This document shows, in pieces, positions 6,401 through 54,192 of a DNA stretch of 64,000 bases. Made by a program: the position numbers and the translations under genes. The stretch is taken from NCBI GenBank assembly GCA_947305775.1, contig CAMZEN010000008.1, positions 2,646-66,645 of the forward strand, given 5' to 3'. Each line of letters opens with the position of its first letter. Position 1 is the stretch's first letter. The stretch comes from an uncultured Verrucomicrobiota bacterium. Lineage in GTDB: Bacteria > Verrucomicrobiota > Kiritimatiellia > RFP12 > UBA1067. The notes beneath the pieces are model-generated. The model made no database searches. It saw only the letters and a list, made by a program, of their open reading frames with translations, and was not told the DNA's origin.

Positions 6401-6614
6401 CGGAGGCAATGACAATGTTCCCATTGGTTACCGAGTTGTCGTTAAGCTCTATCGTGTACGAATTGTCATCGGTGCCGGTTTTGGTGGCGGTGCCGAAATC
6501 GCTTTCCCAGACGACGGTTGCCTTTGGTGCTGTCGCCCAAGCCCCGCCTGTTGCGCAGAGAGCCAATGCGAACGCGAATGTTCGCACTATCGTTCTAGTC
6601 AATTTACCTATCAT
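489..6614 (-). CDS. giant secreted surface protein (2041 aa) with autotransporter-associated beta-strand (PATR)-like repeats and a LamG/concanavalin-like module
   Basis: Uninterrupted ORF. Signal peptide MIGKLTRTIVRTFAFALALCATGGAWA. T/S/G/A/N-rich beta-helix-like composition. PATR-like VKKQGEGTLLYTYTGDNYVLPVIEAGAFELGG. LamG-like LYVFEKISDHQVNIYLDGKLALAY...RIYDRIISDAEM. C-terminus ends in aromatic TIFSVY. Confidence 0.75.
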   Translation of the reverse strand: MIGKLTRTIVRTFAFALALCATGGAWATAPKATVVWESDFGTATKTGTDDNSYTIELNDNSVTNGNIVIASGASKGAIVNTSAANASSMTVLIKYKSAPSPSASVVPASIYCYRTSGSIPDVGIVTYRGGSYKNHPCWYVSSSNKSFDNDNAQDPVMTASGGYLMLSYDCATLKVYAGTSIGTLAGRTIAYAWGSSKMNYVGLGGQTGKASGCPWNAWEGMIIEKVAIFPGNAYSNTDLADYVWPSAEKYQKWSYADTSRIVTWTTPSYAIDNCIPAPAASYTVFDLTSGSNTSTTYTGGAANSTTGANWHYFCYSSNAGSEYVAPGSVLRFVSGDYKKSLAADYSPVTYGGIIVEEGATGYAFASASRYSVLGDPTGATETWFEFNEDFTFGRSGGCHLTGTVNLDIASGKTFTIAGTTTKTATTAKSNILSGTAGGTLKLHGSGKLAATLNASSAKLDFSDQPTASASTTSAYIQGALTVDEDTTFTFPTGATFPYFVATSISGDIDHNTGYKANADGSISVVEPTVLNITSAETVELPTTWTSSDDAVVNVSAGIDATLNVTAAATLSTITFYVPATSTLTISGLAITASTIYFPQPGVVKVSSAGALVGTAKGSGVVQYSGVLPTITSGISFSNADWTGTMWLKDFGVLSGDKVNSNLTADMASWGNTGSKVKFTNVKAYAPSSDVTCNYTLVLEDGTGSEEYAWRCDNGYSSNTVSFGGLAGTGTFYDQGAVTSKFTFNSFDGFTGKFDIASGGHQIIVPASATLNVTQNSSIKFASQGMLGTLNIPAGVTLTSTGSDALGFNATGTVNVYGTLAMGATRWTCGSNNYINLYEGASITGTGDTSYSATIDMNIANGTTVYAYGNATIACPIRSNAGANGKIVVDSGKTLTVSGRIFGDFQVKKQGEGTLLYTYTGDNYVLPVIEAGAFELGGSRTWDLGTLRDFSGLTLESGSSIAIDQTQVEYATGTTTVDNIDSSIASITVNKADGTTATLTRTDSTSTLVESVVVSGAACWYDFTFTNTITTASGSSAGTVTLGKDAGPAYGTLTDAANNTYSGLYAYCRPYTDINLGSTTQFTVALYGTMPTADNTILLDCGGCGSAGALLLASGSSANEAKLYYYNSSGLTPLATMAATSCRTTPHLYVFEKISDHQVNIYLDGKLALAYVNNDITFTLTAGFQVASGFAGVPSGLNAIDKNATTDTTIIAMTRIYDRIISDAEMAVLKTEWPYFSPNGDSARTLASGETAADWTETGKWTVNNAEADTPLANSVVTLTNSAEADAVVAVNLDANTEYESVTFAGDAAISVALKSGYTGKIVPASTSFETDTTVAYNAINLTEGAVEVAAGKTLTFDVSSLVDANWANVASIASIQLTGVATLGTESSIAVTPTTSGYWNLAAEADAGGNYYLTFTPNRETGSIYWQSGTYWNSTYQSGDSPAVFTTDAEGQNATKYFAGDTVIIPNTTHRYFGPISDGAIIQFDCSGTIDISKTDSLGYALKNATVTVASGTTLNFDNSWNGASPEVYGGTISGAGKVQVASGITLTLSNGATIAAATALAGAGTVNLASVPTAQMTFDNWTGTVRLPQFAADGAKLTFAGNDASTVALTGITSGWLGETDTTAHRSDVAPALRLDGAVTISGMSSIWHYSFAKITGTGNLSFTSTTAPSSLAITEIADYTGTLNNSTTTALTVGRISLASAPAADTLLLATNGTGTVTVNAVYVNGSDSGMQVVYKEGGVYSPPATYVAQYGETKYETIQEAIDAAVADSHTYEDVTILDENATCPDEYYIDNGTLKKKPAAVCTAGTLTYYTTIELAMQAANQAAYMAAMGFGTGYDYVIFFENAAVTQILDGMKIKQVAGVTVTVATSSAEFTSTPGAPDAEGIVTYALANAPTAYTWTDAYFAPDPQTAESTVEDHRWSSAGNWSFGSGTTATRYPQSGDTVSFSSASTVTLDANAACASMTIAGCAVSISADSAKTLAAGTISLTAAESSISVTDVTLSPLPTTTVSRSRVVSSISDGTTTYSVEVIPGTIFSVY

Positions 6615-7871: not shown

Positions 7872-9233
7872 TCAAGCGCGGCGAAAGAGGGACTCATCCA
7901 CTGCCCTTCTCCCAACGTGTCCGCGCCACTTCAGCATGGACAGCAGCACCGCAAGTGCTAGAAGAGGCTGGTAGTATAGGCTCTTTGCGAGCGAAAGCGA
8001 ATCGACCTGGATGTCCAGCCCCTTGGCTACGCCCATCGCAATCAAAATCTGCGCACCATACGGCAAAAGCCCCTGCACGACGCAGGACGCCGTGTCAAGC
8101 ACAGATGCCACGCGCACCGGGTCTACCTTGAACTTCTCCGCGCATGCTTTCGCGATCGGCCCCGCGATGACGATTGCGACGGTATTGTTCGCGGTGAAGC
8201 AGTTCACAGCGGAAACGAGGAAGAAAACGCCAAGTTCGCAGGAGCGAGGTCCCCTTATCACCTTCGCGATGCGGTCCGTGAGCCATGCGATGCCGCCGTT
8301 CTCGCGCACGGACCTGAACAGCCCGCCCGCGAGCAGCGCCACGATGAGGGTCTCACCCATTCCAAGCGCACCCTTGCCCAGCAGGTCCATCGCGTCGAAG
8401 AACGCGAACCGCCCAAGTGCGCCGCCGATGACTGCCGAGAGGAGCGTCCCGAAGAACAGGAGCGCCATCACGTTAAAACCGACCAACGCGAGCGCCAGTA
8501 CGAACACATAGGGAGCCACGAGGATGAAATGCTGTCCCGACACGGGCGCGGTTTCGACGACCCCTGCGGCGGAAGAGCCGGACATCGCATAGAGGAAAAG
8601 CGCGACCAAAGCTGCCGGCGAGGCGATGAAGCCGTTCGCAAGGAACTTGTCCTTCATCCGCACGCCTTGCGTCCGTGTTGCGGCAATCGTCGTGTCGGAG
8701 ATCATCGACATGTTGTCGCCGAACATCGCCCCGCCTATCGTCGCACCCATCAGGAGCGCCGGGCTCAGGTGAAGCGGTTCCGCGAAGCCGAGCGCAATCG
8801 GCGTCACGGCGGCGATTGTCCCGCAGGACGTTCCGATCGCCAGCGAAATAAGGCACGACACAAGGAACACACCCGTCACCATGAACTGCGCCGGAACAAA
8901 GCGTTCCGCAATGGCGACCGCCGCATCAACAGCCCCCGCCCCCTTCGCTATCGTGGCGAATGCGCCCGCGAGAATGAAGACAAGGCACATGACCATGATG
9001 TTAGGGTCGCCCATCCCGCGCGCGTACGTCTCGACCTTCTCATCCAGGGAATGGCGTCCAAAGAGGAGCGACGCCGCGGATGCCACCATGAACGCGACAG
9101 GCATCGACACTTTGTACCACGGCATATCGAACCCGAGGTGCGCGGCGAAAAGCGACAACCCTACGTAAAACGCTGCGAACACGACGAACGGGAGCAACGC
9201 GGCGCCGTTCGGCCTTATAGTGCCGCCGCTCAT
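7872..9233 (-). CDS. nhaC: Na+/H+ antiporter, NhaC family (453 aa)
   Basis: Polytopic membrane protein. Stretches such as GMGDPNIMVMCLVFILAGAF, GTSCGTIAAVTPIALG and GGAMFGDNMSMISDTTI are typical of NhaC-type antiporters. Confidence 0.75.
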   Translation of the reverse strand: MSGGTIRPNGAALLPFVVFAAFYVGLSLFAAHLGFDMPWYKVSMPVAFMVASAASLLFGRHSLDEKVETYARGMGDPNIMVMCLVFILAGAFATIAKGAGAVDAAVAIAERFVPAQFMVTGVFLVSCLISLAIGTSCGTIAAVTPIALGFAEPLHLSPALLMGATIGGAMFGDNMSMISDTTIAATRTQGVRMKDKFLANGFIASPAALVALFLYAMSGSSAAGVVETAPVSGQHFILVAPYVFVLALALVGFNVMALLFFGTLLSAVIGGALGRFAFFDAMDLLGKGALGMGETLIVALLAGGLFRSVRENGGIAWLTDRIAKVIRGPRSCELGVFFLVSAVNCFTANNTVAIVIAGPIAKACAEKFKVDPVRVASVLDTASCVVQGLLPYGAQILIAMGVAKGLDIQVDSLSLAKSLYYQPLLALAVLLSMLKWRGHVGRRAVDESLFRRA

Positions 9234-11764: not shown

Positions 11765-12967
11765 TTACTTCTTTATTACATCCTTTATGACATCCTTGGC
11801 CTTGACGGTGCAGAAACGGATGTCTTTTTCGCCGGAGCCTTCGAAAACGACCCCCACATCGGCCGGTTCGCCCTTTGTTTTCGCCGGCATCAGGCAAATG
11901 TCGCTGTATGATGCGCGCCCGGGCTCAATCGTCAGGCCATCATTCCATGTTTGCCCGTCGTCCCAGCTTGTGCGGAGCGTCAGGTTGCTCCTGCCGCCTG
12001 CGTTGCAGTTCGAGAAGATGAGGATTTCATCGGGGTACTTCTGGTCGCCAACCTTCTTGCCCGCGTACTTCTTGCCCAAAGGATACGACATTATCTGCGC
12101 ATTGCACGCGCCGTCGTTAAGCTTTGTGTCGGACCAGTGGTCCCAAGTTTCGCCCTTGTCGTTGCTCTTGAATATCTCGCGCGCCCCAGCCTTCTTGCGC
12201 GAATTTATCATAAGCCCGCCGTCCGAAAGTTCGACAACCTTGCATTCGTCGCCTGGTTCCTTCGTAGGCTTGCCGTAGGCCTTCCACGTCTCGCCGCCGT
12301 CTTCGCTGCCGAACAGCGCCACCTGCTTGCCGACCCACACGATCGTATGGAGCAACGTGCCATCCTTCGTCTGCGTGCCGGAGCCGGAGGTGATGAACAC
12401 AAAGCCGTTCTTCGGCCAGCCCGCCGGCCTTATGCCGGCCGTGATTTCTTTCGGTTCGCCCCAGGTCTTGCCGTTGTCGGTCGATACCTGCACATACTGT
12501 TTGTATATGCCGGCTTCCTTGACATACTCCGCCACGTTGTAGAAGAGGAATATCTTCTTGTTCTTCTGGTCAACGATGAAGCTGGGGTCGCTGCCGGCCC
12601 ACTTTTCCTCGTCGTTCCACGTCCACTCGTGCGAATACACAGACGGCGTCCACTTTTTGCCGCCATCGGAGCTGGTGCGTACCGCTATGTTGATTCTCTG
12701 ATAGTCGCTCTTTGGACCGCCCTTGCGGTTTAGGTCGTATATGTGGTCCTCTCGCGCATCGCACGCCGCAACAAGCGTCTTGCCGTCCGGCGCCATGCAA
12801 AGCGCAGGAATGCGGTAAGTGTTGATTCCCGCGTCGCCAGCCTGCCACAATACTACTTGCTTGGACGCGGCAGATTTCGGCTGCTTGCCGCCGCCATCCT
12901 TTTTCGGCGCACCATGAACAACCATCGCCGCCGCCACCGCCGCCAAAAGAATGATTTTCGTTTTCAT
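11765..12967 (-). CDS. exo-alpha-sialidase (GH33)
   Basis: RIP motif (NTYRIPAL). Five Asp-box/BNR repeats (SSDGGKKW, STDNGKTW, SEDGGETW, SNDKGETW, SWDDGQTW). Start set at MKTKIILLAAVAAAMVVHG (signal peptide) because the -10 element sits 8 nt upstream. Confidence 0.85.
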   Translation of the reverse strand: MKTKIILLAAVAAAMVVHGAPKKDGGGKQPKSAASKQVVLWQAGDAGINTYRIPALCMAPDGKTLVAACDAREDHIYDLNRKGGPKSDYQRINIAVRTSSDGGKKWTPSVYSHEWTWNDEEKWAGSDPSFIVDQKNKKIFLFYNVAEYVKEAGIYKQYVQVSTDNGKTWGEPKEITAGIRPAGWPKNGFVFITSGSGTQTKDGTLLHTIVWVGKQVALFGSEDGGETWKAYGKPTKEPGDECKVVELSDGGLMINSRKKAGAREIFKSNDKGETWDHWSDTKLNDGACNAQIMSYPLGKKYAGKKVGDQKYPDEILIFSNCNAGGRSNLTLRTSWDDGQTWNDGLTIEPGRASYSDICLMPAKTKGEPADVGVVFEGSGEKDIRFCTVKAKDVIKDVIKK

Positions 12968-12974
12968 GCCGCAT

Positions 12975-12983
12975 ATTATATCA
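12975..12983 (-). promoter_or_regulatory. extended -10 promoter element TGATATAAT; implies a leaderless sialidase mRNA
   Basis: Reverse complement of plus attatatca. The last T of the -10 is 8 nt from the A of the ATG at 12967, and there is no SD. Confidence 0.5.
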
Positions 12984-13047
12984 AATCCTCCGCCGCGGGC
13001 GTAATGCAAAATCAATGGCATTTCTGATTGAGCACGGCGAAAGAATA

Positions 13048-13056
13048 TGGTAAAAT
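13048..13056 (+). promoter_or_regulatory. extended -10 promoter element TGGTAAAAT (kinase cluster)
   Basis: Context aagaatatggtaaaat, 72 nt upstream of the ATG at 13128. Confidence 0.5.
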
Positions 13057-13127
13057 TATGACACTTGCGTTACAAGACTCTTGTGTCAACGTGAAGCAAA
13101 GAGAATTTGCGATCGAAAGGGTGATGG

Positions 13128-16010
13128 ATGGAACAGCATATTGATAGCGGGGTTAAACTTGGGCGATATCTGTCGCCTTTGTCCGTGTGGGCTTTGTCGT
13201 TTGGCTGTGCGGTGGGCTGGGGCGCGTTCATCATGCCCGGCACGGCCTTTCTGCCTGTGGCGGGCCCGCTCGGTACGCTGATAGGCCTGAGCGTCGGCGC
13301 GGCGGTGATGTTCCTGATAGGGCGCAACTACCATTATCTCATACAGCACTTCCCCGACTCCGGCGGCGCATACTGCTACGTCAAGCGCGTCTGCGGCAAC
13401 GACCACGGCTACATCTGCGGCTGGTTCCTCATACTCACCTACGTCGCGATCGCCTGGGCGAACGCCACGGCCCTCGCCCTCGTCGGGCGAAACCTGATTG
13501 GGGGGGTGTTCAGCTTCGGCTTCCACTACAAAGTAGCCGGCTTCGACGTCTACGCCGGCGAAATCATTCTGTCGGCCCTGGTCGTCGCCGCGATATGGGC
13601 CGTGTTCATGTGCGGCAGGCGCCTGGCGGCGCGTTTGCAGACGGTTTTCGCGATTGTGCTTCTGGCCGGCGTCGCCATCTGCTTCGCGGCGGCCCTCGCC
13701 GGGCACGACGGCGGCCTCGCGACGCTGACCCCGGCCTTTTCCGCCAAGGGGAACCCGGTGCTGCAGGTGTTCGGCATCATCGCCCTCGCTCCGTGGGCGT
13801 TCATCGGTTTCGAGTCCATCTCGCACTCGGTCGAAGAATACGACTTTCCGCGCTGGAAGACGGTCGGCATAATCGTCTCGGCGCTCGCGTCCTCGGCGTT
13901 CGCCTACATCGCGCTTGCCTTCGTGGCGGCCTCGGCGCAGCCGGAAGGGTTCGCCGGCTGGCGCGACTATCTGGCGAACCTGGGCTCGATGGACGGAATC
14001 GAGGCCGTGCCCGTGTTCTATGCCGTCAAGGCGGCGCTCGGCTCCGCCGGGCTGGCGATACTGGGCCTTGCCACGTTCGCCGCAGCCGTCACGGGCCTGA
14101 TAGGCACCACCGTCGCGTCGAGCCGCCTGCTCTACTCGATGGCCCACGACGGTCTTCTGCCGGAATTCTTCTCGAAGCTCGACAAGGACCACGCCCCCGG
14201 GAACGCGATCGTCGTCATTCTCGCTTCCGCATGCCTGGTGCCGTTCGTGGGGCGCACCGCGGTCAGCTGGATCGTGGACATAACGGCCGTCGGCGCCAGC
14301 GTCGTATACGGCTACGTTTCGTTCTGCACGTTCAGGGTGGCGAAAGACGAAGGCCGCCGCTACGTGATGGCGAGCGGCGTCGCCGGGCTTGTAGTGGCGT
14401 CGCTCTTCATGGTCTACTACCTGATGCCGAACTTCTGGGTGGTCGATGCGCTCGCGACGGAATCGTACTTCATCCTTGCGATCTGGAGCATCCTGGGGGT
14501 GCTGGTGTTCCGCAACGTATTCCGCCGCGACCACTCGGGCCGCATCGGGGCGTCGACGGCGGCATGGATCGTGCTCGTGTTCTTCGTGTTCTTCTCGGGC
14601 CACATGTGGGACCGCCAGATGACGCGCGACCTCACGAACATCACCGTGACCGAGATACACGAGCACATTGAAGAGATGAAGAACCCCGATCACGACGACG
14701 AAGGGTGCGACTTCCTCGAAAAGCAGAAGGAAAGAATCGACGACACCCTTACCCACTACAACCTCATACAGGTGCTGCTGGTGGTGATCGCGCTCGGGAT
14801 AATGTACAACATCTACACCATCATCTCGAAGCGCGAACACCAGGCGGCGAAGGCCAAGGCCTACTTCTTCTCGACGATAAGCCACGACGTGCGGACGCCG
14901 CTGAACGCCATAGTCGGCTTCTCCCAGATGCTCAAGCTCGGTTTCAAGACGAAGAAGGAGAGCGACGCCGCCGTCGATTCGATATTGGTGAGCAGCAAGG
15001 CCCTGCTGGGGCTGATAAACGACATACTCGATCTGTCGCGCTGCGAAGTCGGCTCGGCGGAAGTCTCGGTCGCCCCAACCGAATGCCGCCTGCTGATGCA
15101 CGAGATCGTAGAGTCGTTCCGCGTGGCTTCGGCCGACAAGAAGGTCGAGATAAGGGACTCCATCGAAGAGATGCCGCCGCTGCTCGTCGACCACATGCGC
15201 TTCAGGCACGTCGTGTTCAACCTGATGTCCAACGCGGTGAAGTTCACAGAAAAGGGCTTCATCGAGCTTCGCGCCAAGTTCGATCCGGGCGAGGAGGTCG
15301 GAACCGGCACCCTGCGCGTGGAGCTGCAGGATACAGGCGTGGGGATAAGCGCCGAGGACCAGAAGCACATCGACTCGCCCTACGAGCAGACCGACAACAA
15401 GCTCGCCCGCCACAGCGGAACAGGCTTCGGCCTCGCCGTGGGCCGCCAGTTCGTCGAGGCCATGGGCGGCAAGCTGACGGTGAAGTCAGCGGTCGGCAAG
15501 GGCACAACGTTCTACATCGACATACCTCAGGTGAAGATCGCGCAGCAGATCGAGCCCGTGCACACAATCGTTGAAGTGCTGCACGAGCTAAAGCCGAGCG
15601 AGGCGGCAAAGCCGAGGATCATGCTTGTGGACGACTCGAAGATGAACCTTACCGTTCTTAAGTCGCTCATGAAGCGGCTCGGCGACTTCGACATCGAAAC
15701 CGCGATGGACGGCAAGGAGGCTCTCGAAAGGATAATGCGTACGGACCTGCCGAAGTTCGATGTCATACTCACCGACATGTGGATGCCGGAGTTGGACGGC
15801 GAAGGCCTGGCCAAGGCGATACGCGCGGACGAGCGTTTCTCGAATCTTCCGGTCTACGTCATCACCGCGGACGTGGAGCTCAAGGAGACTTACGCGGAGA
15901 AGCAGTTCGACGACATACTTCTCAAGCCCGTGACCATAGACGGTCTTCGTTCGCTTCTGCCCGCGTACGTACTCGGGGGGGGGGGAGTGACCTGTGAGAC
16001 CGCCCCGTAA
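13128..16010 (+). CDS. APC-type permease domain fused to a hybrid histidine kinase (permease-HisKA-HATPase-REC, 960 aa)
   Basis: N-terminal ~470 aa is polytopic with an APC-like start LSVWALSFGCAVGWGAFIMPG. H-box STISHDVRTPLNAI (~nt 14880). HATPase GTGFGLAVGRQFVEAMGG. Receiver IMLVDDSKMN...DVILTDMWMPELDG...LLKP. Confidence 0.75.
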   Translation: MEQHIDSGVKLGRYLSPLSVWALSFGCAVGWGAFIMPGTAFLPVAGPLGTLIGLSVGAAVMFLIGRNYHYLIQHFPDSGGAYCYVKRVCGNDHGYICGWFLILTYVAIAWANATALALVGRNLIGGVFSFGFHYKVAGFDVYAGEIILSALVVAAIWAVFMCGRRLAARLQTVFAIVLLAGVAICFAAALAGHDGGLATLTPAFSAKGNPVLQVFGIIALAPWAFIGFESISHSVEEYDFPRWKTVGIIVSALASSAFAYIALAFVAASAQPEGFAGWRDYLANLGSMDGIEAVPVFYAVKAALGSAGLAILGLATFAAAVTGLIGTTVASSRLLYSMAHDGLLPEFFSKLDKDHAPGNAIVVILASACLVPFVGRTAVSWIVDITAVGASVVYGYVSFCTFRVAKDEGRRYVMASGVAGLVVASLFMVYYLMPNFWVVDALATESYFILAIWSILGVLVFRNVFRRDHSGRIGASTAAWIVLVFFVFFSGHMWDRQMTRDLTNITVTEIHEHIEEMKNPDHDDEGCDFLEKQKERIDDTLTHYNLIQVLLVVIALGIMYNIYTIISKREHQAAKAKAYFFSTISHDVRTPLNAIVGFSQMLKLGFKTKKESDAAVDSILVSSKALLGLINDILDLSRCEVGSAEVSVAPTECRLLMHEIVESFRVASADKKVEIRDSIEEMPPLLVDHMRFRHVVFNLMSNAVKFTEKGFIELRAKFDPGEEVGTGTLRVELQDTGVGISAEDQKHIDSPYEQTDNKLARHSGTGFGLAVGRQFVEAMGGKLTVKSAVGKGTTFYIDIPQVKIAQQIEPVHTIVEVLHELKPSEAAKPRIMLVDDSKMNLTVLKSLMKRLGDFDIETAMDGKEALERIMRTDLPKFDVILTDMWMPELDGEGLAKAIRADERFSNLPVYVITADVELKETYAEKQFDDILLKPVTIDGLRSLLPAYVLGGGGVTCETAP
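15975..15985 (+). repeat. G11 homopolymer at the junction of the two permease-kinase genes
   Basis: Read directly (ctc ggg ggg ggg gga). Encodes the GGGG near the C-terminus of the first gene and merges into the GGAG SD, 7 nt before the GTG at 15994. Confidence 0.9.
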
Positions 16011-19000
16011 TCTCTCGGCCCTCGCTGCTTGGGGCCTTTCGTTCGGCTATGCCGTCGGTTGGGGTGCGTTCGTCATGCCGGGCGCGAAGTTCCTGCCCGA
16101 TGCCGGCCCGCTCGGCACCATCCTCGGCGTAGTCGCGGGCGCCATCGCGATGGTGGTGATAGGTTGGAACTACTATCGCATGGTTTCGTCGTCGCCCGGG
16201 CCGGGCGGCGCCTACACATACGCGACAAAGGCTTTCGGCTACGACTACGGCTTCCTTACCGCGTGGTCGCTGTCGCTCGCATACATGGCGATACTCTGGG
16301 CCAACGCGACCGCGCTGGTGCTGCTTGTGCGCTACGTGTTCGGCGACGCCTTCCAGTTCGGCTGGCACAGCAAAGTCGCCGGCTTCGACGTCTACTTCGG
16401 CGAGGCGCTTCTGTCGATGTGCATGATGGTGTTCGCGGGCGTATGCTGCCTGTTCCACCGCCGGTTCTCCGGACGCATCCAGGCGACATGCACCGTGTTC
16501 ATGATCGTTTCTATAGCGGTATGCTTCGGCGTCGCGGCCTTCAAGCATCAGGGCGGCATGGCGGCGATGGCCCCCGCGTTCTCGGCGACCGGCGGGGCCG
16601 ACAAGCTGGTGCAGACGCTGCGCATACTCGCGATGATGCCCTGGGCGTTCGTCGGCTTCGAGGCCGTGACCCACTCATCGCTTGAGTTCAAGTTCCCGAT
16701 GAAGCGGCTATGGCCTGTCATGCTGTTTGCGATACTGGCCTCTGCCGCCGCCTACATAATGCTCACGCTGATGCCCGTCCTCGCGCACCCTGACGGGTAT
16801 GTGACGTGGAGTGAATACATACGCGACTGCTCGAACCTCGACGGCCTGAGCACGATGCCGACCTTCGCCGCCGTCCAGAAGACGATGGGAGGCTTCGGCG
16901 TAGCCCTGCTCGCGGCCACGATGGTCGCCGCAATACATACGGGCATCGTCGGCACCATCGTCGCAATGAGCCGGCTTCTGTACACGCTTTCGTCCGAGGG
17001 GCTGCTGACCAAGGCCCGCTGGCTGGGGCAGCTCGACGGCAACGGCTCTCCGCGAAACGCGATAATATTCGTGGTGGGCATCTCGCTCTTCATTCCGTTC
17101 TTCGGGCGGACGGTGATAGGCTGGCCGGTGGATGTGTCGAGCATCGGCGCGGCGGTTGCGTTCTGCTGCACGTCGGCGGCCGCATGGAAGTTCGCGCGGA
17201 GCAACGGCGACAGGGTAACGATGGTCACCGGCCTGGTCGGCGTAGTAATGTCGGTGCTGTTCTGCCTGCTGCTGCTCGTGCCGAACTACCTTTCGACAAG
17301 CGTCCTTTCGGCCGAGGCGTATCTCGTGCTCTCGTTCTGGTGCATAATCGGCTTCATGCTGTACCGCCAGGTGTTCACGAAGGATGCCCACCAGCGCTTT
17401 GGGCGTTCGCCAATAGTGTGGACGGGCATCGTCATCATGATCTTCTTCGCGTCGCTCATGTGGGTGCGCCTCTCTTCGCAGTCCGCGACGGCAAAGGCGG
17501 TCGATTCGATAGTGGCGTTCTCGGAGGACCACTGCAGGCGGATGCATGGAGTTGTCAATCACGAAGAGCTGCACCACGAGCAGGAGTTCGTATCCGAGAA
17601 GATGGATGCGCTCAACAGCGATCAGCTTGTGAACGACATCGTGCAGATGGGGTTGCTTTCGTTTTCGCTAGTCATAATGTTCAACCTCTACTCCATACAG
17701 CGCCGCCGCGAGGAGCGCCTTGAGGTCGCCAACGCAAAGGCCGAGGCGAGGGACCGCGCCAAGAGCGCGTTCCTCTCCAGCATAAGCCACGACATCCGAA
17801 CCCCGATGAACGCCATCATCGGCTACATCGAGCTAGCGAAGCGAAAAGGCACCACCGAGGCGAAGATGCGCGAATACCTTGCGAAGACGGACGTCGCAAG
17901 CCACCATCTGCTGGCGCTCTTGAACGACGTACTCGAAATGAGCCGCATAGAGTCCGGCAAGATCGAGCTGGAGCCTGTGCCGGTCGATTTGGCGGCGGTG
18001 TTCGACGAGGTTGCAGCCATCTTCTCGGCCCAGATGGCGGAGAAGCACCTCGACTTCAGGCTCGACATGTCCGGCGTAAGCCACACGTGCGTCATGTGCG
18101 ACAGGGCGCGCCTGAACCGCATAATCCTCAACCTCATCAGCAACGCCTACAAGTTCACGCCGTCCGGCGGGAGCATAACCATGTCGCTGGCCGAGTTCGA
18201 GAGCGGACGCGAGAACGCCGCCAACTACGAACTTTGCGTAAGGGATACCGGCATCGGCATGAGCGAGACGTTCATGAAGCATGTGTTCGACGCGTTCGAG
18301 CGCGAGCGCAGCACCACCGTGAACGGCATAGAGGGCACAGGCCTCGGAATGCCGATCACGAAAGCCATCGTGGAGCTGATGAAAGGCACGATAACGGTGG
18401 ACTCCGAGGTCGGCAAGGGAACCGTGTTCACGATCCACCTGTCCCTGCCGTTCGCGCATGGCGTGCCTCAGAAGGTATCGCCCGTCGCCGCCGCAGCCGT
18501 GCCGCCGCTTCAGCCGATGGACCACTCGAAGATGCGCCTGCTGCTCGTGGAGGACAACGAGGTGAACCGCGAAATCGCCTCCACGCTGCTGGAGCAGGCC
18601 GGCTTCAATGTCGATGTCGCGGAGAACGGCAAGATCGCCGTCGACAAGTTCGCCAACGCCGGGGAAGGCTATTACAACGCGATATTGATGGATGTCCGCA
18701 TGCCGGTGATGGACGGCTACAAGGCTACGCGCACCATACGGTCCATGGAGCGCGGCGGCAAGCTGCGCGTGCCGATCATAGCGCTGTCGGCGAACGCCTT
18801 CGAGTCAGACGTTAAGGACGCGCTCTCGGTCGGCATGGACGCGCACATCGCGAAGCCGATAAAGCTGCCGCTGCTCATGAAGGTGCTCGAAGACCTGTTG
18901 AGGCGCACCGCCGCCACCGCAGACTCCGGGCTGAAGGGCGACGTGCTGAATTGCCTGGCGAAGATGGGCTGCGACATCGAGACCGCGCTGAAGGAGACGT

Positions 19001-19290
19001 ATATCGGCAACGTGGCGTTCTACTTGAAGATGCTGGCCAAGCTGCCGCAGAACACGGCCATAGCGCAGATGCGCAAGTCGTTCGATACCTTCGACGCGGT
19101 CGGGCTTTTCGAGGCGTCACACAGCCTGAAGGGCATGTATGCTTCGCTCGGCCTGACGCCGCTTCATGCGATCTGCAGCGAAATCGTAGAGATATCCCGC
19201 AATGGAGGTCTTGACGGTGTGAGCCCGCTCCTCACGAAGCTCGAGAAGATGCACGCTGAGGTTGTAGGGCTTGCTAAGATGCAATCTTGA
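15994..19290 (+). CDS. APC-type permease domain fused to a hybrid histidine kinase with HPt (permease-HisKA-HATPase-REC-HPt, 1098 aa)
   Basis: Paralogue of the upstream gene (LAAWGLSFGYAVGWGAFVMPG). H-box SSISHDIRTPMNAI. HATPase GTGLGMPITKAIVELMKG. Receiver LLLVEDNEVN...AILMDVRMPVMDG...HIAKP. HPt motif SHSLKG. Confidence 0.75.
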   Translation: MRPPRNLSALAAWGLSFGYAVGWGAFVMPGAKFLPDAGPLGTILGVVAGAIAMVVIGWNYYRMVSSSPGPGGAYTYATKAFGYDYGFLTAWSLSLAYMAILWANATALVLLVRYVFGDAFQFGWHSKVAGFDVYFGEALLSMCMMVFAGVCCLFHRRFSGRIQATCTVFMIVSIAVCFGVAAFKHQGGMAAMAPAFSATGGADKLVQTLRILAMMPWAFVGFEAVTHSSLEFKFPMKRLWPVMLFAILASAAAYIMLTLMPVLAHPDGYVTWSEYIRDCSNLDGLSTMPTFAAVQKTMGGFGVALLAATMVAAIHTGIVGTIVAMSRLLYTLSSEGLLTKARWLGQLDGNGSPRNAIIFVVGISLFIPFFGRTVIGWPVDVSSIGAAVAFCCTSAAAWKFARSNGDRVTMVTGLVGVVMSVLFCLLLLVPNYLSTSVLSAEAYLVLSFWCIIGFMLYRQVFTKDAHQRFGRSPIVWTGIVIMIFFASLMWVRLSSQSATAKAVDSIVAFSEDHCRRMHGVVNHEELHHEQEFVSEKMDALNSDQLVNDIVQMGLLSFSLVIMFNLYSIQRRREERLEVANAKAEARDRAKSAFLSSISHDIRTPMNAIIGYIELAKRKGTTEAKMREYLAKTDVASHHLLALLNDVLEMSRIESGKIELEPVPVDLAAVFDEVAAIFSAQMAEKHLDFRLDMSGVSHTCVMCDRARLNRIILNLISNAYKFTPSGGSITMSLAEFESGRENAANYELCVRDTGIGMSETFMKHVFDAFERERSTTVNGIEGTGLGMPITKAIVELMKGTITVDSEVGKGTVFTIHLSLPFAHGVPQKVSPVAAAAVPPLQPMDHSKMRLLLVEDNEVNREIASTLLEQAGFNVDVAENGKIAVDKFANAGEGYYNAILMDVRMPVMDGYKATRTIRSMERGGKLRVPIIALSANAFESDVKDALSVGMDAHIAKPIKLPLLMKVLEDLLRRTAATADSGLKGDVLNCLAKMGCDIETALKETYIGNVAFYLKMLAKLPQNTAIAQMRKSFDTFDAVGLFEASHSLKGMYASLGLTPLHAICSEIVEISRNGGLDGVSPLLTKLEKMHAEVVGLAKMQS

Positions 19291-19340
19291 TTTACTTTAT
19301 TTAACGGTTGGCGTAAAAGCACGAAAGGACGGGTCCACAA

Positions 19341-20879
19341 ATGAAAGAGTTCGAAGGCTACCGCATTATTTTGGCGGAAGACGAGGAGATCGACCGCGAG
19401 GTCGTGGCAAACCTTGTCGAAGACCTTGGCGCGACGTGCATCACCGTAAAGGACGGTGACGAACTGCTGGAAAGGCTGAACGGCCCGGACGGGGGCTCGA
19501 TAGACCTCGTTCTGACCGACATAAACATGCCGCACACAGACGGAATCGAGGCCTGCTCAGAGTTCCGGTCGTCGATGAATCCCAAGGCGAAGACCATGCC
19601 GATAATAGGGATCTCGGCTGACACGAACCAGGGCATATTCGACAGGGCGATCTCGGCCGGAATGAACAGCATGACGCTGAAGCCGCTGACGAGGGAGACC
19701 CTTCGCGCGCATTTCCACATAATGCTGAAGGACAACATGGCGAACGCCGTCTTCAGCGAGCGCGTTCAGCAGGCTTTGGCGAAAAGCCTGTTCTTCTCGA
19801 CCGTCAGCCACGATCTCAGGACTCCGCTGAACGCGATAATCGGATTCTCCGAGATGCTCAAGCAGGGTTTCGAATCTCCGTCGGAGCGGGAATTCGCCAT
19901 CGACTCGATTATCATGAGCAGCCGCGAGATGCTTCAGCTCGTCAACGACATACTCGACCTCTCGAAGCTGGAGCAGGGGCGCCTCACCATAGAGCCCGAG
20001 CCGACCGACGTCGCCATGCTTCTGAGGGAGATCGTGGCCTCCTTCGGCATAACCCAGCAGAAGCCGGGCCTTGAGATGCTATGCCATGCCGATGGTTTGC
20101 CGTCGCTTGTCATCGACCCGCACCGCATGAGGCAGATAGCCTTCAACCTCGTAAGCAACGCCGTAAAGTTCACGAATAAGGGCTATGTCGACATCAGGGC
20201 TTCGTTCACGCCGGACGCCGACGGCGCAAAGGGCGTCTTCCGCATGGAGGTCAAGGATACCGGCTGCGGCATAAGCGCCGAAGACCAGAGGAAGCTGGCC
20301 CGGCCGTTCGTGCAGGTCGGCGACAAGGTCGCGAAGCGCGGCGGAACCGGCCTCGGGCTTCACATATGCCGCTGGATCGCGAAGACCATGGGCGGCAGCA
20401 TGACGATATCTTCGGTGCTTGGCGAAGGCACGACAATCGCAATCGTAGTGCCCGGCGTAAGGGTCGCGGCGACCGGTTGGTCGGCGGGTGGCGACGCCGC
20501 CTCTAAAGAACCGCTCAAGACGGACAAGAGCATACTCATCGTGGACGACGCCAAGCTGAACCAGATCGTCCTGAAGAACATGTTCGGCAGGCTTGGCGCG
20601 ACCAACCTGACGATCGTATCGAACGGACGCGAGGCGCTGGACGTTCTGAAGGCGCGCGGCGCAGGGGCGTTCGACCTTGTGCTGACCGACGCCTACATGC
20701 CTGAGATGGGCGGACTTGAGCTAATCGAGGTGATCAGGGCCGACCCTGCGCTGGCGAAGATGACAGTGTATCTTTTCACCGCCGAGGTCGAAATGAACGA
20801 GACCTACGCGGAAAATGGCTTCGACGGCATAGTACTGAAGCCTGCCACACTTGAATCGCTAAAGGAGTTGCTGAAATGA
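19341..20879 (+). CDS. soluble hybrid histidine kinase, REC-HisKA-HATPase-REC (512 aa)
   Basis: No TM segments. N-terminal receiver IILAEDEEID...LVLTDINMPHTDG. H-box STVSHDLRTPLNAI. GGTGLGLHICRWIAKTMGG. C-terminal receiver ILIVDDAKLN...LVLTDAYMPEMGG...VLKP. Confidence 0.85.
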   Translation: MKEFEGYRIILAEDEEIDREVVANLVEDLGATCITVKDGDELLERLNGPDGGSIDLVLTDINMPHTDGIEACSEFRSSMNPKAKTMPIIGISADTNQGIFDRAISAGMNSMTLKPLTRETLRAHFHIMLKDNMANAVFSERVQQALAKSLFFSTVSHDLRTPLNAIIGFSEMLKQGFESPSEREFAIDSIIMSSREMLQLVNDILDLSKLEQGRLTIEPEPTDVAMLLREIVASFGITQQKPGLEMLCHADGLPSLVIDPHRMRQIAFNLVSNAVKFTNKGYVDIRASFTPDADGAKGVFRMEVKDTGCGISAEDQRKLARPFVQVGDKVAKRGGTGLGLHICRWIAKTMGGSMTISSVLGEGTTIAIVVPGVRVAATGWSAGGDAASKEPLKTDKSILIVDDAKLNQIVLKNMFGRLGATNLTIVSNGREALDVLKARGAGAFDLVLTDAYMPEMGGLELIEVIRADPALAKMTVYLFTAEVEMNETYAENGFDGIVLKPATLESLKELLK

Positions 20880-21721
20880 AGATCAATGCATTAGCCGTGG
20901 CCGCGTCGCTCGCCGCCGTGGCGTTTACTCCGACATATGGTGCGGAAGAGGAGGAGCAGACCGACGCAAAGTGGCTGTCGTTCCACGCCTTTGCCGACGT
21001 CGAGAGCGCCTACATCTGCCGCGGATACGTGTGGGACGTGCGCCCGTACTCGGCGCAGTTCGCCGACGCCGCCGTGGACCTCGGTGCGTTTGGCCGCATT
21101 GACGCGTCCGTCTGGACGATGTCCGCCATGTCCAGCAGCGGACATTCCGACGCGATGAGCCGCTACGCATACGCCGAGATAGACTACATGCTGCGGTATT
21201 CCTACGACATCGAGATCACGGAAGGCTGGCGTCTGTCGAGCGGCATCGCCCGCCAGTGGGTGACGAATCCCGGCTACAAGGGCGGTCGCACAGTTTGCGA
21301 TTTCCAGTTCATGCAGTCGTTGCAGAACCCGTATGTGACGCCCTACTGGAAGGTGCGTGCGATACACAGGCCTTTCGACGAGACGTATTTCATCGTCGGC
21401 GCGAAGAAGGGGTTTGCGCTCACGGACGACCTTACTCTTACCGTGGATTTCTTCGGCGACCTTGGCGACCGCCGCCACTTCGAGAACCTTTACGGACCGA
21501 AGCCGGGCTCGCCGACGTCGAACTATCGCGGCGGACTTCAGGCGCTAAACCTTGTGTTCAGGCTTGACTACGCCCTTGCCGACCACATTGGCCTTTTTGC
21601 GTTCATCGGGCAGTTCGGGGTCGTCCACGAGGACGCCCGCAGGGCTGTTAAGGCCACGAAGACCCCGGAGGCGCGGCGCGACCTTACTTACGGCGGCGTT
21701 GGCGTGTCGATCGACTTCTGA
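20876..21721 (+). CDS. outer-membrane beta-barrel protein, TorF/Gcw_chp-like (281 aa)
   Basis: ATGA overlap with the kinase stop. Signal peptide MKINALAVAASLAAVAFTPTYGA. Alternating-hydrophobic strands. C-terminal GGVGVSIDF (terminal Phe beta-signal). The family call is tentative. Confidence 0.5.
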   Translation: MKINALAVAASLAAVAFTPTYGAEEEEQTDAKWLSFHAFADVESAYICRGYVWDVRPYSAQFADAAVDLGAFGRIDASVWTMSAMSSSGHSDAMSRYAYAEIDYMLRYSYDIEITEGWRLSSGIARQWVTNPGYKGGRTVCDFQFMQSLQNPYVTPYWKVRAIHRPFDETYFIVGAKKGFALTDDLTLTVDFFGDLGDRRHFENLYGPKPGSPTSNYRGGLQALNLVFRLDYALADHIGLFAFIGQFGVVHEDARRAVKATKTPEARRDLTYGGVGVSIDF

Positions 21722-21764: not shown

Positions 21765-22655
21765 ATGGCAACCGACGTAAAAGAGCTGATGGCGAAGGTG
21801 GGGAAGATACGAATCCTCACCAATCGCCTTATTGACGACCAGCTTAGCGGCGACTACCACTCGACGTTCAAGGGCCAGGGCGTTGAGTTCGACGAAGTGC
21901 GCCCGTACATAGCCGGCGACGACGTAAGGACGATCGACTGGAACGTGACCGCGAGGATGGGGACGCCTTTCATAAAGCGGTTCTCGGAGGAGCGCGAACT
22001 TACCGTGCTTTTCATGGTGGACGTCTCGGGCTCGCAGGGGTACGGCTCGCGCAACCGCTCCAAGATGGAGCTTTCCGCCGAAGTGACCGCGCTTCTGGCG
22101 CTTACGGCCATACGCAACCAGGACAAGATCGGGCTGATCCTCTTTTCCGACAGCATAGTGAAGTACATCCCTCCGCGAAAGGGGCGCGACAGCGTGATGC
22201 GCCTCGTTCGCGAAGTGCTTGCCGCCGAAGACGGCGCCGAGGGCGGCACCGACATACCCGGTGCGCTACGCTTCCTGAACGGCGTCCAGAAGCGCCGCGC
22301 CGTCGTCTTTCTGGTCTCGGACTTCCTTACCAGGCAGGAGGGGCTTGAGAAGCTGCTGCGTGCGACGGCGCGCCGTCATGACATGGTGTGCGTGCCGGTG
22401 GGCGATCCCGCCGAGAGCGAGCTGCCCGATGTGGGCCTTGTCGAGCTTGAGGACCCAGAGACAGGCGAGCTTGTGCTGGTCGATACTTCAAGCGCAAGGG
22501 TGCGGCGCGCCTTCGCCGAGAGGGCGGCCGAGGACGGCGAGTCGCTAAGGCGGTTCTTCGTAAAGACCGGCATAGACACAATGACGCTTTCAACGGACCG
22601 TCCGTACATAGACGAAGTGCGCGCACTGTTCAAGCGCCGCGCCAGAAAGAGATGA
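21765..22655 (+). CDS. DUF58 domain protein (MoxR/Bat-cluster type)
   Basis: FKGQGVEFDEVRPYIAGDDVRTIDWNVTARMG... and VDVSGSQGYGS are characteristic of DUF58. Confidence 0.75.
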   Translation: MATDVKELMAKVGKIRILTNRLIDDQLSGDYHSTFKGQGVEFDEVRPYIAGDDVRTIDWNVTARMGTPFIKRFSEERELTVLFMVDVSGSQGYGSRNRSKMELSAEVTALLALTAIRNQDKIGLILFSDSIVKYIPPRKGRDSVMRLVREVLAAEDGAEGGTDIPGALRFLNGVQKRRAVVFLVSDFLTRQEGLEKLLRATARRHDMVCVPVGDPAESELPDVGLVELEDPETGELVLVDTSSARVRRAFAERAAEDGESLRRFFVKTGIDTMTLSTDRPYIDEVRALFKRRARKR

Positions 22656-22659
22656 CGAT

Positions 22660-23577
22660 ATGTTTTGCTGTTTGATGCTGGCGGCGTCGCTTCTGGTGAT
22701 GGAGAAAAACGGGGTCGAGATCAAGATCGACGGCGGGCCGGAGACCATCGACCCCGGCAGGAGTGTGTTCCTTGCCGTCACGATAACGCATTCTCGCGAA
22801 GTGAAGGTGGTGCATCCGGACTTCCGCGATCGCGTTCGCGGCTTTTCGCTCGCCGAAGATTTCGCGGAGGAGCCTAGCACGACCAAGGATGGCCGCGTGG
22901 TCGAGACCGTCAACTGGAAGCTGATACCCGAGCCTTGCGCCGAAGAGTACAAGTTGGCGCCGTTTCTCGTAAAGGCGTCGCCGCGTCTGCTTTCATCGCT
23001 GGCGGACGACGGAAGCCTTTCGTTCGTCGCAGGACCTGTGCGTTTCGCGAATCCGCCGCCGCGCGAACCGGTTACAGGCGGCATGGAGGTCGATCCGAAG
23101 AAGGATATGCCTCCGCTAAGCTGGAAGCTTGTTGGCAGGATCGCCGCGGCGTTGGCGGCGGTCTGCTTGCTGGTCTGGGCGGTCTGGAAGGGCGTTTGCT
23201 ATGCTGCGCGGCGGATCAAGGAGCATCGCATGAGCCCGATAGAGCGCGCATGGGCGGAGCTTGACCGCCTTCTCAAGAAGGGGCTGCCGGGGCGCGGCAG
23301 ATACAAGGACTTCTATGTGGAGTTGACGATGGTCGTTCGCAGGTATGTGCAGCGCAAGTACGGAATTCGCGCCCCGCACCTGACGACCGAGGAGTTCTTG
23401 CGCGAATGCGGCGCTTCGGAAGGCCGCATATGCGATACCGCCGCGCTCAGGAAGTTCCTTGAGAGCGCCGACATGGTGAAGTTCGCCGGTGTGGAGGCGA
23501 CGCCGGAAATGGCGGACGATGCGACGGACTCTGCGCGCGGATACCTGAAGGGCGATTCGAAGGAGGTCGCAAGGTGA
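22660..23577 (+). CDS. membrane protein with DUF4381-like C-terminal region (Bat-cluster type)
   Basis: A central TM (IAAALAAVCLLVWAVW) is followed by ERAWAELDRL...FYVELTMVVRRYVQRKYGIRAPHLTTEEFL...ADMVKFAG, the DUF4381 pattern. Confidence 0.5.
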   Translation: MFCCLMLAASLLVMEKNGVEIKIDGGPETIDPGRSVFLAVTITHSREVKVVHPDFRDRVRGFSLAEDFAEEPSTTKDGRVVETVNWKLIPEPCAEEYKLAPFLVKASPRLLSSLADDGSLSFVAGPVRFANPPPREPVTGGMEVDPKKDMPPLSWKLVGRIAAALAAVCLLVWAVWKGVCYAARRIKEHRMSPIERAWAELDRLLKKGLPGRGRYKDFYVELTMVVRRYVQRKYGIRAPHLTTEEFLRECGASEGRICDTAALRKFLESADMVKFAGVEATPEMADDATDSARGYLKGDSKEVAR

Positions 23578-24620
23578 AGTTCGCGAGCCCCATGATGCTT
23601 CTTATGGCGCTGCCGCTTGCGTTTGCCGCGTGGCGACTTCTGAGGTGCGCGAAAAGATCGGGGCTGAGGTTCCCTGCGATATCGCGCCTTCCGTCCAGGG
23701 CGGCCGGGTGGAGGGCGAAGGTCGCCGCCGCTACGCCTTTCATCATGCTTGCGGGGCTTGCGATGCTGATTGTGGCGGCGGCGCGTCCGCGCACGCCCCT
23801 CGCGCACGAGAGGAAGTCCGTGGACGCGATAGCGATTGCGATGACGGTGGATGTCTCGGGCTCGATGGACGCGCTCGACCTTACGCCGAAGGGCGTGCAG
23901 TATTCGCGTGAGACGACGCGCCTTGCGGTGGTGAAGAAGCTTTTCGCCGAATTCGTCGAGAAGCGTCCGGACGATCTCATCGGCCTTGTCACGTTTGGCG
24001 GCTATGCCGCCACGCGTTCGCCGCTGACCGCAGACCACGATGCGCTTCTCAACGTGCTCAAGGGCGTCGAAATACCTTCCGTCGCCTTGGATTCCAACGG
24101 ACGCGCAATAGCGCAGGACGAGCAGATGACGGCGATAGGGGATGGCCTCGCAACCGCCCTAGCCCGGCTGAAGGACGCGAAACCGAAGTCGAAGATAGTC
24201 ATTCTTCTTTCGGACGGCGTCAGCAACACTGGCGCGGTAGAGCCTGACGAAGCGGCAAAGGCGGCGGCGAAGATGGGCGTGAAGGTGTATGCGATCGGCG
24301 TCGGCACAAAATCGCGCAACACGCCTGTATTCGGGCGCGACTTCTTCGGGCGCACAATCATTCAGCGTGCCGACATGACCTTTGACGAACGGCAGCTTAA
24401 GTCGATAGCGTCCGTTACCGGCGGCACATACTTCCCGGTCAACGACCGCGACTCGCTCGAAAAGGCTCTTGAGGAAATCGACCAGCTTGAGACCACTGCG
24501 CTCGATGCAGATACCTATGACCGTTGGGAGGAACACTTTGTGGCGTTCCTTGTTTTGGGAGCGCTTCTGGTGTTTGCCGCGGTCTCCCTTTCCATGGCGG
24601 CATCGCGTCGTATGGCATGA
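23574..24620 (+). CDS. VWA domain protein, BatA-like
   Basis: GTGA overlap with the upstream gene. N- and C-terminal TM segments. MIDAS VDVSGSMDALD. ILLSDGVSNTG. YAIGVG. Confidence 0.75.
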   Translation: MKFASPMMLLMALPLAFAAWRLLRCAKRSGLRFPAISRLPSRAAGWRAKVAAATPFIMLAGLAMLIVAAARPRTPLAHERKSVDAIAIAMTVDVSGSMDALDLTPKGVQYSRETTRLAVVKKLFAEFVEKRPDDLIGLVTFGGYAATRSPLTADHDALLNVLKGVEIPSVALDSNGRAIAQDEQMTAIGDGLATALARLKDAKPKSKIVILLSDGVSNTGAVEPDEAAKAAAKMGVKVYAIGVGTKSRNTPVFGRDFFGRTIIQRADMTFDERQLKSIASVTGGTYFPVNDRDSLEKALEEIDQLETTALDADTYDRWEEHFVAFLVLGALLVFAAVSLSMAASRRMA

Positions 24621-52265: not shown

Positions 52266-52320
52266 AACGAGGCAGCATGTGCGTGTACTGAAGATATTTA
52301 TGAAATGGGCAGGAAAGGCG

Positions 52321-54180: not shown

Positions 54181-54192
54181 GGTTTACGCGAA

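Follow-up and report, generated by a model that had tools for sequence, protein, structure and literature searches.

APC permease-histidine kinase fusions in a four-gene signalling block of a Kiritimatiellia bacterium

Can a complete amino acid permease serve as the input domain of a histidine kinase? The question is raised by four consecutive genes in a 64 kb stretch of DNA (the window) from a gut or rumen Kiritimatiellia bacterium (GenBank assembly GCA_947305775.1, contig CAMZEN010000008.1). An earlier, sequence-only reading of the window had placed four co-oriented open reading frames (ORFs) here, and our ORF check returned exactly the same coordinates and junctions: genes 1 and 2 overlap by 17 nt, genes 2 and 3 are separated by 50 nt, and genes 3 and 4 share a 4-nt overlap (ATGA) through which gene 4 is translationally coupled to gene 3. 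The best explanation of the block is that it is a self-contained, conserved Kiritimatiellia signalling operon. Because an exact-sequence look-up of gene 3 found no record in public assemblies, the context of the block was taken from relatives. Its parts, with transmembrane helices abbreviated TM, are as follows.

13128..16010, + strand: gene 1, 960 aa, a 14-TM APC-permease::hybrid histidine kinase (APC-2TM-HisKA-HATPase-REC; Pfam, orthologues 60-95% identical)
13128..14537, + strand: 12-TM APC (SLC7-like) core of gene 1, aa 1-470, with the signatures GWGAF (TM1) and PWAFIGFES (TM6)
14550..14831, + strand: TM13, an extracytoplasmic helical hairpin of ~55 aa and TM14 of gene 1, aa ~475-568 (hydropathy, AlphaFold2)
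14856..15953, + strand: transmitter and receiver of gene 1, with HisKA at aa 577-638, HATPase_c at 688-801 and REC at 831-942 (Pfam)
15994..19290, + strand: gene 2, 1098 aa with a GTG start, an APC-permease::hybrid kinase with a C-terminal Hpt domain (Pfam, orthologues)
19057..19263, + strand: Hpt domain of gene 2, aa 1022-1090 (Pfam, 33.1 bits against a cut-off of 24.6)
19341..20879, + strand: gene 3, 512 aa, a soluble REC-HisKA-HATPase-REC hybrid kinase (Pfam, tblastn)
20876..21721, + strand: gene 4, 281 aa, a signal-peptide outer-membrane beta-barrel of 12-14 strands with a C-terminal Phe

Permease, kinase and barrel parts of the block

Genes 1 and 2 are old paralogues (35-39% identity). 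Each had been read as a permease joined to HisKA, HATPase and receiver domains in one polypeptide, and Pfam finds that architecture in both. The AA_permease_2 profile (positions 1-404 of 427) matches gene 1 at aa 15-436 with 109.7 bits (E 2e-31) and gene 2 with 99.6 bits, against a cut-off of 27, the APC domain of gene 2 occupying aa 7-451; SSF, STAC and PAS gave no match at E<=0.01. Gene 1 also aligns over aa 7-470, all 12 TMs included, with GkApcT (6f34), a bacterial SLC7/CAT homologue (phmmer against the PDB, E 2e-11). An AlphaFold2 (AF2) model of gene 1 residues 1-640, built on 66 homologues (pLDDT 83.4, pTM 0.81), has GkApcT, BasC, AdiC, LAT1 and y+LAT1 as its best PDB matches (Foldseek, target-normalised TM-score 0.79-0.84; entries 6f34, 3ob6 and 9h76 superimposed), and its alignments to the 14-TM structures of CAT1 and CAT4 span 555-566 columns. 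These matches to solved APC transporters indicate that the complete APC fold is retained; the N-terminal domains are genuine, complete permease domains, as first proposed, and not another membrane sensor. At those TM-scores GkApcT, AdiC, BasC and CAT1 share the 12-TM fold, the TM1 G-x-G motif and the TM6 (W/F)xxGxE motif of the unwound helices; however, identity is 16-20%, genes 1 and 2 carry a Trp in G-x-G and a C-terminal kinase, and gene 1 lacks the TM5 Lys.

The 12 APC helices are followed by two more, absent from the sequence-only reading, which bring the membrane region to 14. Hydropathy places TM13 at aa ~475-493 and TM14 at aa ~549-567 of gene 1, and the AF2 model has helices at 478-516 and 523-604. 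Since residues 523-604 are modelled as a single uninterrupted helix, TM14 is predicted to run directly into the DHp helix bearing His586; Pfam detected no PAS, HAMP or STAC domain between the membrane part and the DHp.

Conservation, scored across the 66 homologues, peaks in TM1/3/6/8/10. The most conserved helices are TM1 (0.84), TM3 (0.79), TM6 (0.76) and TM10 (0.73), which are substrate-site or gating helices, with TM4 (0.55), TM5 (0.61) and TM7 (0.57) less conserved (Mann-Whitney p=1.7e-6). DHp helix 1 scores 0.87, and the extracytoplasmic loop between TM13 and TM14 is the least conserved segment (0.43). TM1 VGWGAF and TM6 PWAFIGFES are nearly invariant across 66 to 150 homologues, the unusual Trp that stands in G-x-G in place of Ser/Thr/Ala being a clade signature. 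The substrate-site helices are the best conserved part of the membrane domain; retention of the substrate-site residues had been singled out for checking. This is the pattern expected if the APC site, and not the loop, is the sensing element; it fits binding and transport alike and cannot tell them apart.

In the kinase halves, the H-box His, the N, G1 and G2 boxes and the receiver residues DD...D...T/S...K are all intact in genes 1, 2 and 3, both gene 3 receivers included. Gene 1 has H586, the N/G boxes and D883; gene 2, with HisKA at aa 589-655, HATPase at 703-818 and REC at 850-965 (Pfam), has H600 and D901; and gene 3 has D60, H157 and D450. The Hpt domain recognized earlier on gene 2 by its SHSLKG motif is confirmed by Pfam, with the conserved His in that motif at aa 1042-1047. 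Gene 3 has no hydrophobic segment, and its TM-less REC-HisKA-HATPase-REC order stands as first read. Over its kinase and C-terminal REC it shares 42-46% identity with the gene 1 type and ~30% with the gene 2 type (tblastn), so that by sequence it resembles a gene-1-type transmitter in which a receiver has taken the place of the permease. In NCBIfam, the transmitter parts come closest to TorS, ArcB, LuxQ and BarA, in partial matches that all stay under the cut-off.

As the sequence-only reading had observed, none of the four receivers in the block carries an output domain (Pfam). Across the 64 kb, jackhmmer found no Hpt beyond that of gene 2, and REC, GGDEF, EAL, Hpt and rhodanese seeds recovered only the three kinases (phmmer, jackhmmer). 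Pfam scans of 30 other window ORFs returned housekeeping genes and carbohydrate-active enzymes (CAZymes), among them AspRS, AlaRS, RpoD, a GH35 beta-galactosidase and a DUF4011 helicase-nuclease. A single Hpt and no output-bearing response regulator anywhere in the window agree with the earlier suggestion of a relay to a regulator encoded elsewhere.

The product of gene 4 opens with a signal peptide (MKINALAVAASLAAVAFTPTYGA) and ends in ...GVGVSIDF, and its AF2 model (pLDDT 80) is a barrel of 12-14 strands, in line with its first description as a signal-peptide beta-barrel ending in ...SIDF. Foldseek gives 268 PDB barrel matches at E<=1e-3, the nearest folds being PcoB, OmpG, KdgM/NanC/VhGalP and FapF at a TM-score of ~0.5. 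Neither Pfam nor NCBIfam matches gene 4, and all of its 210 homologues are without a Pfam domain or a name; the unnamed homologues and the modelled barrel fold point to a small porin-like channel whose sequence family is new. A role for it as outer-membrane conduit for a solute is plausible, given the fold, the carbohydrate-active surroundings of its distant paralogues and the barrel gene beside one stand-alone permease of the same clade (both described below). The Gcw_chp family (PF09694 / TIGR02001), which the sequence-only reading had suggested, is not that family: none of 56 homologues matches it even at E<=5, nor does gene 4 itself. Membership in the KdgM/NanC or OmpG families was also rejected, the likeness being one of fold only (8-12% identity at that TM-score, no Pfam match).

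Recurrence of the block and relation to known systems

Gene order recurs in relatives, a point on which the sequence-only reading had staked its proposal. One related locus (L021) has the full g1-g2-g3-g4 block at 67/68/68/75% identity; another (L091) has the same order and the same 4-nt overlaps, with a 61% identical barrel and unrelated flanking genes. A third (L001, gene 1 85% identical) keeps g1-g2-g3, and its gene 2 and that of L021 are 68-71% identical to ours. Partial versions are g1, a g3-like kinase and g4 in L004, two other kinases followed by g2-g3-g4 in L084, and g3-g4 in L085 and L086.

A barrel-centred metagenome scan gave 80 loci, which were checked for a kinase core on the same strand immediately upstream. 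Such a core was found in 23 of the 28 loci whose barrel reached 55% identity and that had 1.3 kb or more of sequence upstream; among loci with more distant barrels the count was none of 14. Nine of the kinase-linked barrel loci extend 5.2 kb or more upstream, and every one of them contains one or more APC fusions. The more distant paralogues of the barrel occur instead in carbohydrate-active loci, beside FAD_oxidored (PF12831) proteins of ~950-1000 aa, an alpha-amylase and an acetyl-xylan esterase.

Barrels 42-51% identical to gene 4 consistently adjoin the FAD_oxidored (PF12831) proteins (L139, L140, L142, L143, L145, L148, L154, L158 and L160), one of which has a weak Golvesin_C match; this is a second conserved pairing of the barrel family, without a kinase. 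In L002, a 422-aa 'amino acid permease' ORF (13006-14271) was rejected as a true stand-alone permease. It is an in-frame chimera of ~345 gene-2-like permease residues and the last ~75 of a gene-4-like barrel, from a ~4.5-kb deletion or misassembly in which the kinase part was lost together with gene 3 and most of gene 4, and it implies that the barrel belonged to the block in L002 too. Genes for YhdP-like, RrnaAD and hexokinase proteins (52279-56291) are syntenic with L001 2172-6143. In L001 their position is 4-8 kb upstream of the kinase block, in the window 31 kb downstream, so that between these close relatives a rearrangement has affected the block or its surroundings.

The fusion itself is widespread and common, occurring in Kiritimatiellia and Lentisphaerae and in many Firmicutes of the rumen. 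Searching 5.8 billion clustered proteins gave more than 1,200 matches, the top 120 of which are all fused permease-kinases; the few named ones are called 'amino acid permease' and come from metagenome-assembled genomes (MAGs) of Kiritimatiellae or Lentisphaerae. Scanning one genome per GTDB species yielded at least 584 confirmed fusion loci. The best 80 are mostly from rumen Lachnospiraceae, Selenomonadaceae and Oscillospiraceae, with single Olsenella and Quinella MAGs, and include the cultured isolates Butyrivibrio sp. WCD3002 and MB2005 and Lachnospiraceae bacterium AC3007; their proteins keep the whole architecture (940-1110 aa) at ~39-40% full-length identity.

With the APC core alone, an exhaustive HMMER search found 376 clusters (50% identity) at E<=1e-30. 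Among the top 150, 86 are of fusion length (at least 690 aa, judged by length alone) and about 40 are of 430-520 aa, many of the latter being genuine stand-alone 12-TM permeases. These carry the same GWG and PWAFxGF(E/D) signatures. One (L087) is divergent to a separate HisKA-HATPase-REC kinase, and another (L089 and L090) is preceded by a gene for a 200-aa outer-membrane barrel.

An NhaC-type Na_H_antiporter gene (7872-9233, - strand) lies 4 kb upstream of gene 1, and a 42% identical homologue (L089 9837-11126) stands directly beside the stand-alone APC-clade permease that has the barrel upstream. This could be coincidence or reflect a shared substrate pathway.

How does the fusion compare with known transporter-linked sensors? 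SSS domains, such as that of CbrA, have the LeuT fold and are members of the APC superfamily; the earlier statement that APC-fold fusions are uncharacterised was thus imprecise for the superfamily, but it applies to the APC family proper (AA_permease/SLC7). CbrA is a true transceptor, a histidine transporter that also signals (PMC7096432, PMC13022988). Like genes 1 and 2, CbrA and CrbS/MxtR of Pseudomonas and Vibrio join a LeuT-fold secondary transporter to HisKA/HATPase in one polypeptide, but their transporter is of the SSS (SLC5) type whereas ours is APC proper (AA_permease_2, SLC7-like). Their SSS domain is followed by STAC, whereas genes 1 and 2 have neither STAC nor PAS, and two extra TM helices lead into the DHp. 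In addition, genes 1 and 2 are hybrid kinases with REC, gene 2 also having Hpt, and they are tandem paralogues accompanied by a third kinase and an outer-membrane barrel, the adjacent NtrC-type regulator being absent. Because a TM helix is continuous with the DHp helix, coupling in the APC-kinase fusions would be different and simpler.

Ks-Amt5 of Kuenenia stuttgartiensis, of the PVC superphylum, binds its ligand and signals without efficient transport (PMC5764959, PMC8534201). It likewise uses a transporter fold as kinase input in a PVC-group bacterium; however, it is a trimeric channel of Amt/Rh fold with a different kinase arrangement and no barrel partner, whereas genes 1 and 2 have the APC fold. 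The APC-family permease fold is itself the ligand-sensing element in LysP-CadC of E. coli and in yeast Ssy1 and Gap1. In those systems the permease is separate and acts via protein contacts or PKA/SPS, whereas here it is covalently fused to the kinase; the unfused clade permease beside a kinase in L087 would be the analogous split form. As for wiring, the Vibrio LuxN/LuxQ/CqsS-LuxU-LuxO and Pseudomonas GacS/RetS/LadS-HptB networks likewise combine several hybrid kinases with one Hpt hub and a regulator elsewhere. In contrast to them, the block has permease inputs, an Hpt fused to a kinase and one N-terminal receiver, and falls short of the equivalog cut-offs.

The transporter-kinase fusions that we found described are CbrA and CrbS (SSS), Ks-Amt5 (Amt) and the uncharacterised SK-MFS family (TCDB), and the CbrA structure paper calls such fusion proteins rare. 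Full-text searches turned up no paper about AA_permease-type kinase fusions; one match, on C. phytofermentans, was irrelevant to them. The new elements are the APC-proper permease, helical coupling without STAC or PAS, the hybrid and Hpt wiring, the tandem paralogues and the barrel partner. APC-kinase fusions are real, conserved, widespread and visible in domain databases, yet annotated only as 'amino acid permease', a label under which annotation-based surveys miss them. The locus belongs to a family of hundreds of sequence clusters that use the APC/SLC7 fold as kinase input. A gene for an outer-membrane barrel tightly coupled to one for a soluble kinase is a rare pairing of outer-membrane channel and phosphorelay. 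The family occurs in cultured rumen Butyrivibrio, beside Hpt and REC-GGDEF genes, which makes experiments feasible. Knowing the ligand would reveal how nutrients are sensed by abundant glycan degraders of the gut, and would provide a second, independent system in which to study the conversion of alternating-access movements into kinase control.

Proposed flux sensing, its output and its rivals

From the observed domain content, fold, catalytic residues, conservation pattern, gene order and neighbourhoods we infer that a ligand binds at the APC site and is transported, in which direction phosphate passes, what the porin does and what the output is. We lean, with some reserve, towards a transceptor-type multi-kinase phosphorelay that converges on the gene 2 Hpt, with the porin supplying the solute. 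The solute would cross the outer membrane through gene 4, as a small porin-like channel, and reach the sensors. These would be the inner-membrane products of genes 1 and 2, with a whole APC/SLC7-type permease domain as the input of a hybrid kinase ('transceptor'). A small amino-acid-like or organocation solute would bind the canonical TM1/TM3/TM6/TM8 site and probably pass through, and the alternating-access movements would be passed on by the TM13-TM14 hairpin, whose last helix is predicted to be continuous with the DHp, to the DHp helix. Genes 1, 2 and 3 would each autophosphorylate and pass phosphate to their own receivers, and the three kinases would converge on the sole Hpt, at the gene 2 C terminus, which would in turn feed a response regulator whose gene lies elsewhere. 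Through its N-terminal receiver, gene 3 may be open to feedback or cross-regulation.

Clues to the output come from 79 related loci with a fusion. Further hybrid kinases occur in 25 of them, a REC-GGDEF(-EAL) regulator in 14, other GGDEF or EAL proteins in nine and a stand-alone Hpt in 10; HK-REC, REC-GGDEF-EAL, Hpt, APC-HK-REC, HK-REC is a recurrent arrangement in Clostridia. Among the Kiritimatiellia, three to four loci (L002, L092 and L084, the last sharing its contig with L118) have the kinases and barrel inside an exopolysaccharide (EPS) locus with genes for Bac_transf, GT4, Wzy_C, Polysacc_synt, Poly_export and a STAS protein. Given the GGDEF and Hpt neighbours in Firmicutes and the EPS loci in Kiritimatiellia, the likeliest output, by analogy with relatives and not from this genome, is control of c-di-GMP turnover and/or of EPS production. 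The barrel is unlikely to be an EPS secretin: the EPS loci have their own Poly_export (Wza-like) gene, and barrel paralogues lie in catabolic loci.

Other neighbours of the relatives recur as well. In the EPS-locus versions of the block, L084 (12031-12354) and L092 (10317-10640), the second gene downstream of the barrel encodes a STAS (anti-sigma antagonist-like) protein, and in L091 a dCache-SpoIIE phosphatase gene (15479-17119) lies ~4.6 kb downstream of the barrel, a hint of partner-switching regulation. In 18 loci, mostly from Selenomonadaceae, one or two rhodanese-domain lipoprotein genes stand directly 3' of the permease-kinase gene (L008, L015, L022, L024, L027, L032, L036, L037, L044, L049, L051, L054, L057, L059, L064, L071, L072 and L082), which might hint at a sulfur-containing ligand in that branch.

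Several observations weigh against the flux-sensing scheme. The window holds no output regulator, and the assignment of the output to c-di-GMP or EPS draws on other phyla or on only three to four related loci. The four genes are not an obligate unit, gene 1 being absent from L084 and gene 4 from L001. The porin role of the barrel is argued from fold likeness (TM-score ~0.5) and gene context. No curated NCBIfam transporter cut-off is reached, the best match being BcaP (84.6 bits against 690), with TIGR00909 at 78.7 bits against 556.8; because all such matches fall far below cut-off, a substrate class cannot be transferred. Finally, the bulky Trp within G-x-G, and the Leu that HMMER aligns in gene 1 with GkApcT K191 (TM5), could each mean binding without translocation. 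We take K191 of GkApcT, like K158 of ApcT, to be the proton-coupling site.

The last three of these observations are what one would expect if the APC domains were receptors only, binding the solute without translocating it, so that the kinases report external concentration and not flux and other transporters do the uptake. This main rival is possible, although we do not prefer it. It has a precedent in Ks-Amt5, which binds but barely transports (PMC8534201); the yeast APC-type sensor Ssy1 is a parallel. However, the same TM1/TM6 signatures occur in stand-alone 12-TM clade members without a signalling domain, which are presumably transporters; the whole 12-TM fold is conserved, gating helices included; and the TM5 Lys is likewise absent from many APC antiporters and facilitators.

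It is improbable that the permease is a degenerate membrane anchor or dimerisation scaffold, the stimulus arriving via the TM13-14 hairpin, the receivers (by cross-phosphorylation) or the barrel. The TM13-loop-TM14-DHp segment does resemble the classical two-TM sensor module of kinases, gene 3 has an input receiver, and there are many kinases per locus. Nevertheless, the loop that would do the sensing is the least conserved segment, TM1 is nearly as conserved as the DHp helix, the APC-clade/kinase fusion is maintained across phyla at ~40% identity, and an unfused clade member is also paired with a kinase. On this conservation pattern and context the anchor is disfavoured.

Returning to flux sensing, we would tentatively go further and regard APC-fold transceptor kinases as a large unrecognised class of nutrient sensors of the anaerobic gut and rumen, which may feed the flux of one specific amino-acid-like solute directly into multi-kinase phosphorelays that control c-di-GMP levels and EPS production. 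As part of the same tentative proposal, the Kiritimatiellia version may be a complete envelope-spanning conduit, made up of a dedicated porin, two permease-kinases that are paralogues and possibly form heterodimers, a soluble kinase gated by its receiver, and one Hpt common to them.

The divergent sialidase and other neighbours

The gene divergent from gene 1 had been read as a sialidase, and Pfam agrees (BNR_2, E 2.5e-24; BNR_3, E 4.6e-18); together with a YRIP (FRIP-type) motif, these matches assign it to the GH33 sialidases. One further feature belongs here.

13022..13127, no strand: divergent intergenic region between the sialidase gene and gene 1, reaching 12969 if the sialidase starts at Met18

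Met18 of the sialidase (ATG at 12968) opens a classical signal peptide, MKTKIILLAAVAAAMVVHGA, and is most likely the start. The spacer of ~160 bp first reported holds for this start (159 bp), but not for the longest sialidase ORF (106 bp). A perfect TATAAT ends 7 nt upstream of the Met18 ATG (12940-13021, - strand), a placement that would fit a putative leaderless sialidase transcript. There is one sigma-70-like match at 13028-13056, promoter-like matches being no commoner than in shuffles. Because neither promoter nor terminator counts exceed those of shuffles, these scans are uninformative on operon boundaries; upstream of gene 1, Rfam gave no riboswitch or leader RNA match at E<=1.

It is very unlikely that sialic acid or an amino sugar set free by the sialidase is what the module senses and that the module controls the sialidase gene: the gene is adjacent and divergent, its product is exported, judging by the signal peptide, and the sialic-acid-inducible porin NanC is among the fold matches of the barrel (rank 27), but that match, at 8% identity, is a likeness common to barrels in general, the usual cargo of APC-family carriers is amino acids and amines and not sialic acid, no sialidase homologue was found in the first 83 related and the 80 barrel-centred metagenomic loci (tblastn, E 1e-5), the block has other neighbours in the 85%-identical L001 (there the window genes 52279-56291 lie just upstream), and the intact L091 and L021 blocks have unrelated flanks. 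These context data disfavour the link to sialoglycan foraging drawn by the sequence-only reading, and rule out a functional sialidase link as a conserved feature; the adjacency is incidental in a CAZyme-rich genome.

On the other side of the block, a DUF58 gene, a 305-aa ORF without a family and a BatA-like VWA gene (21765-24620, + strand) begin 43 nt past the barrel gene, with no MoxR ATPase gene upstream; one transcript with the kinase operon is possible. In L085 a 57% identical BatA-like gene lies directly 3' of the barrel, so that the barrel-VWA adjacency recurs at least once. Farther away, a 2041-aa ORF (489-6614, - strand) has no Pfam match at E<=1e-3; it shows weak tblastn similarity (27-32%) to part of a 4978-aa Peptidase_C10/Flg_new_2 giant protein that adjoins the g3-g4 pair in L086. 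At 56263-59856 (+ strand), a 1197-aa protein with DUF4011, AAA_11/AAA_12 and REase_MTES_1575 domains is a superfamily-1 helicase-nuclease fusion that may act in defence or repair.

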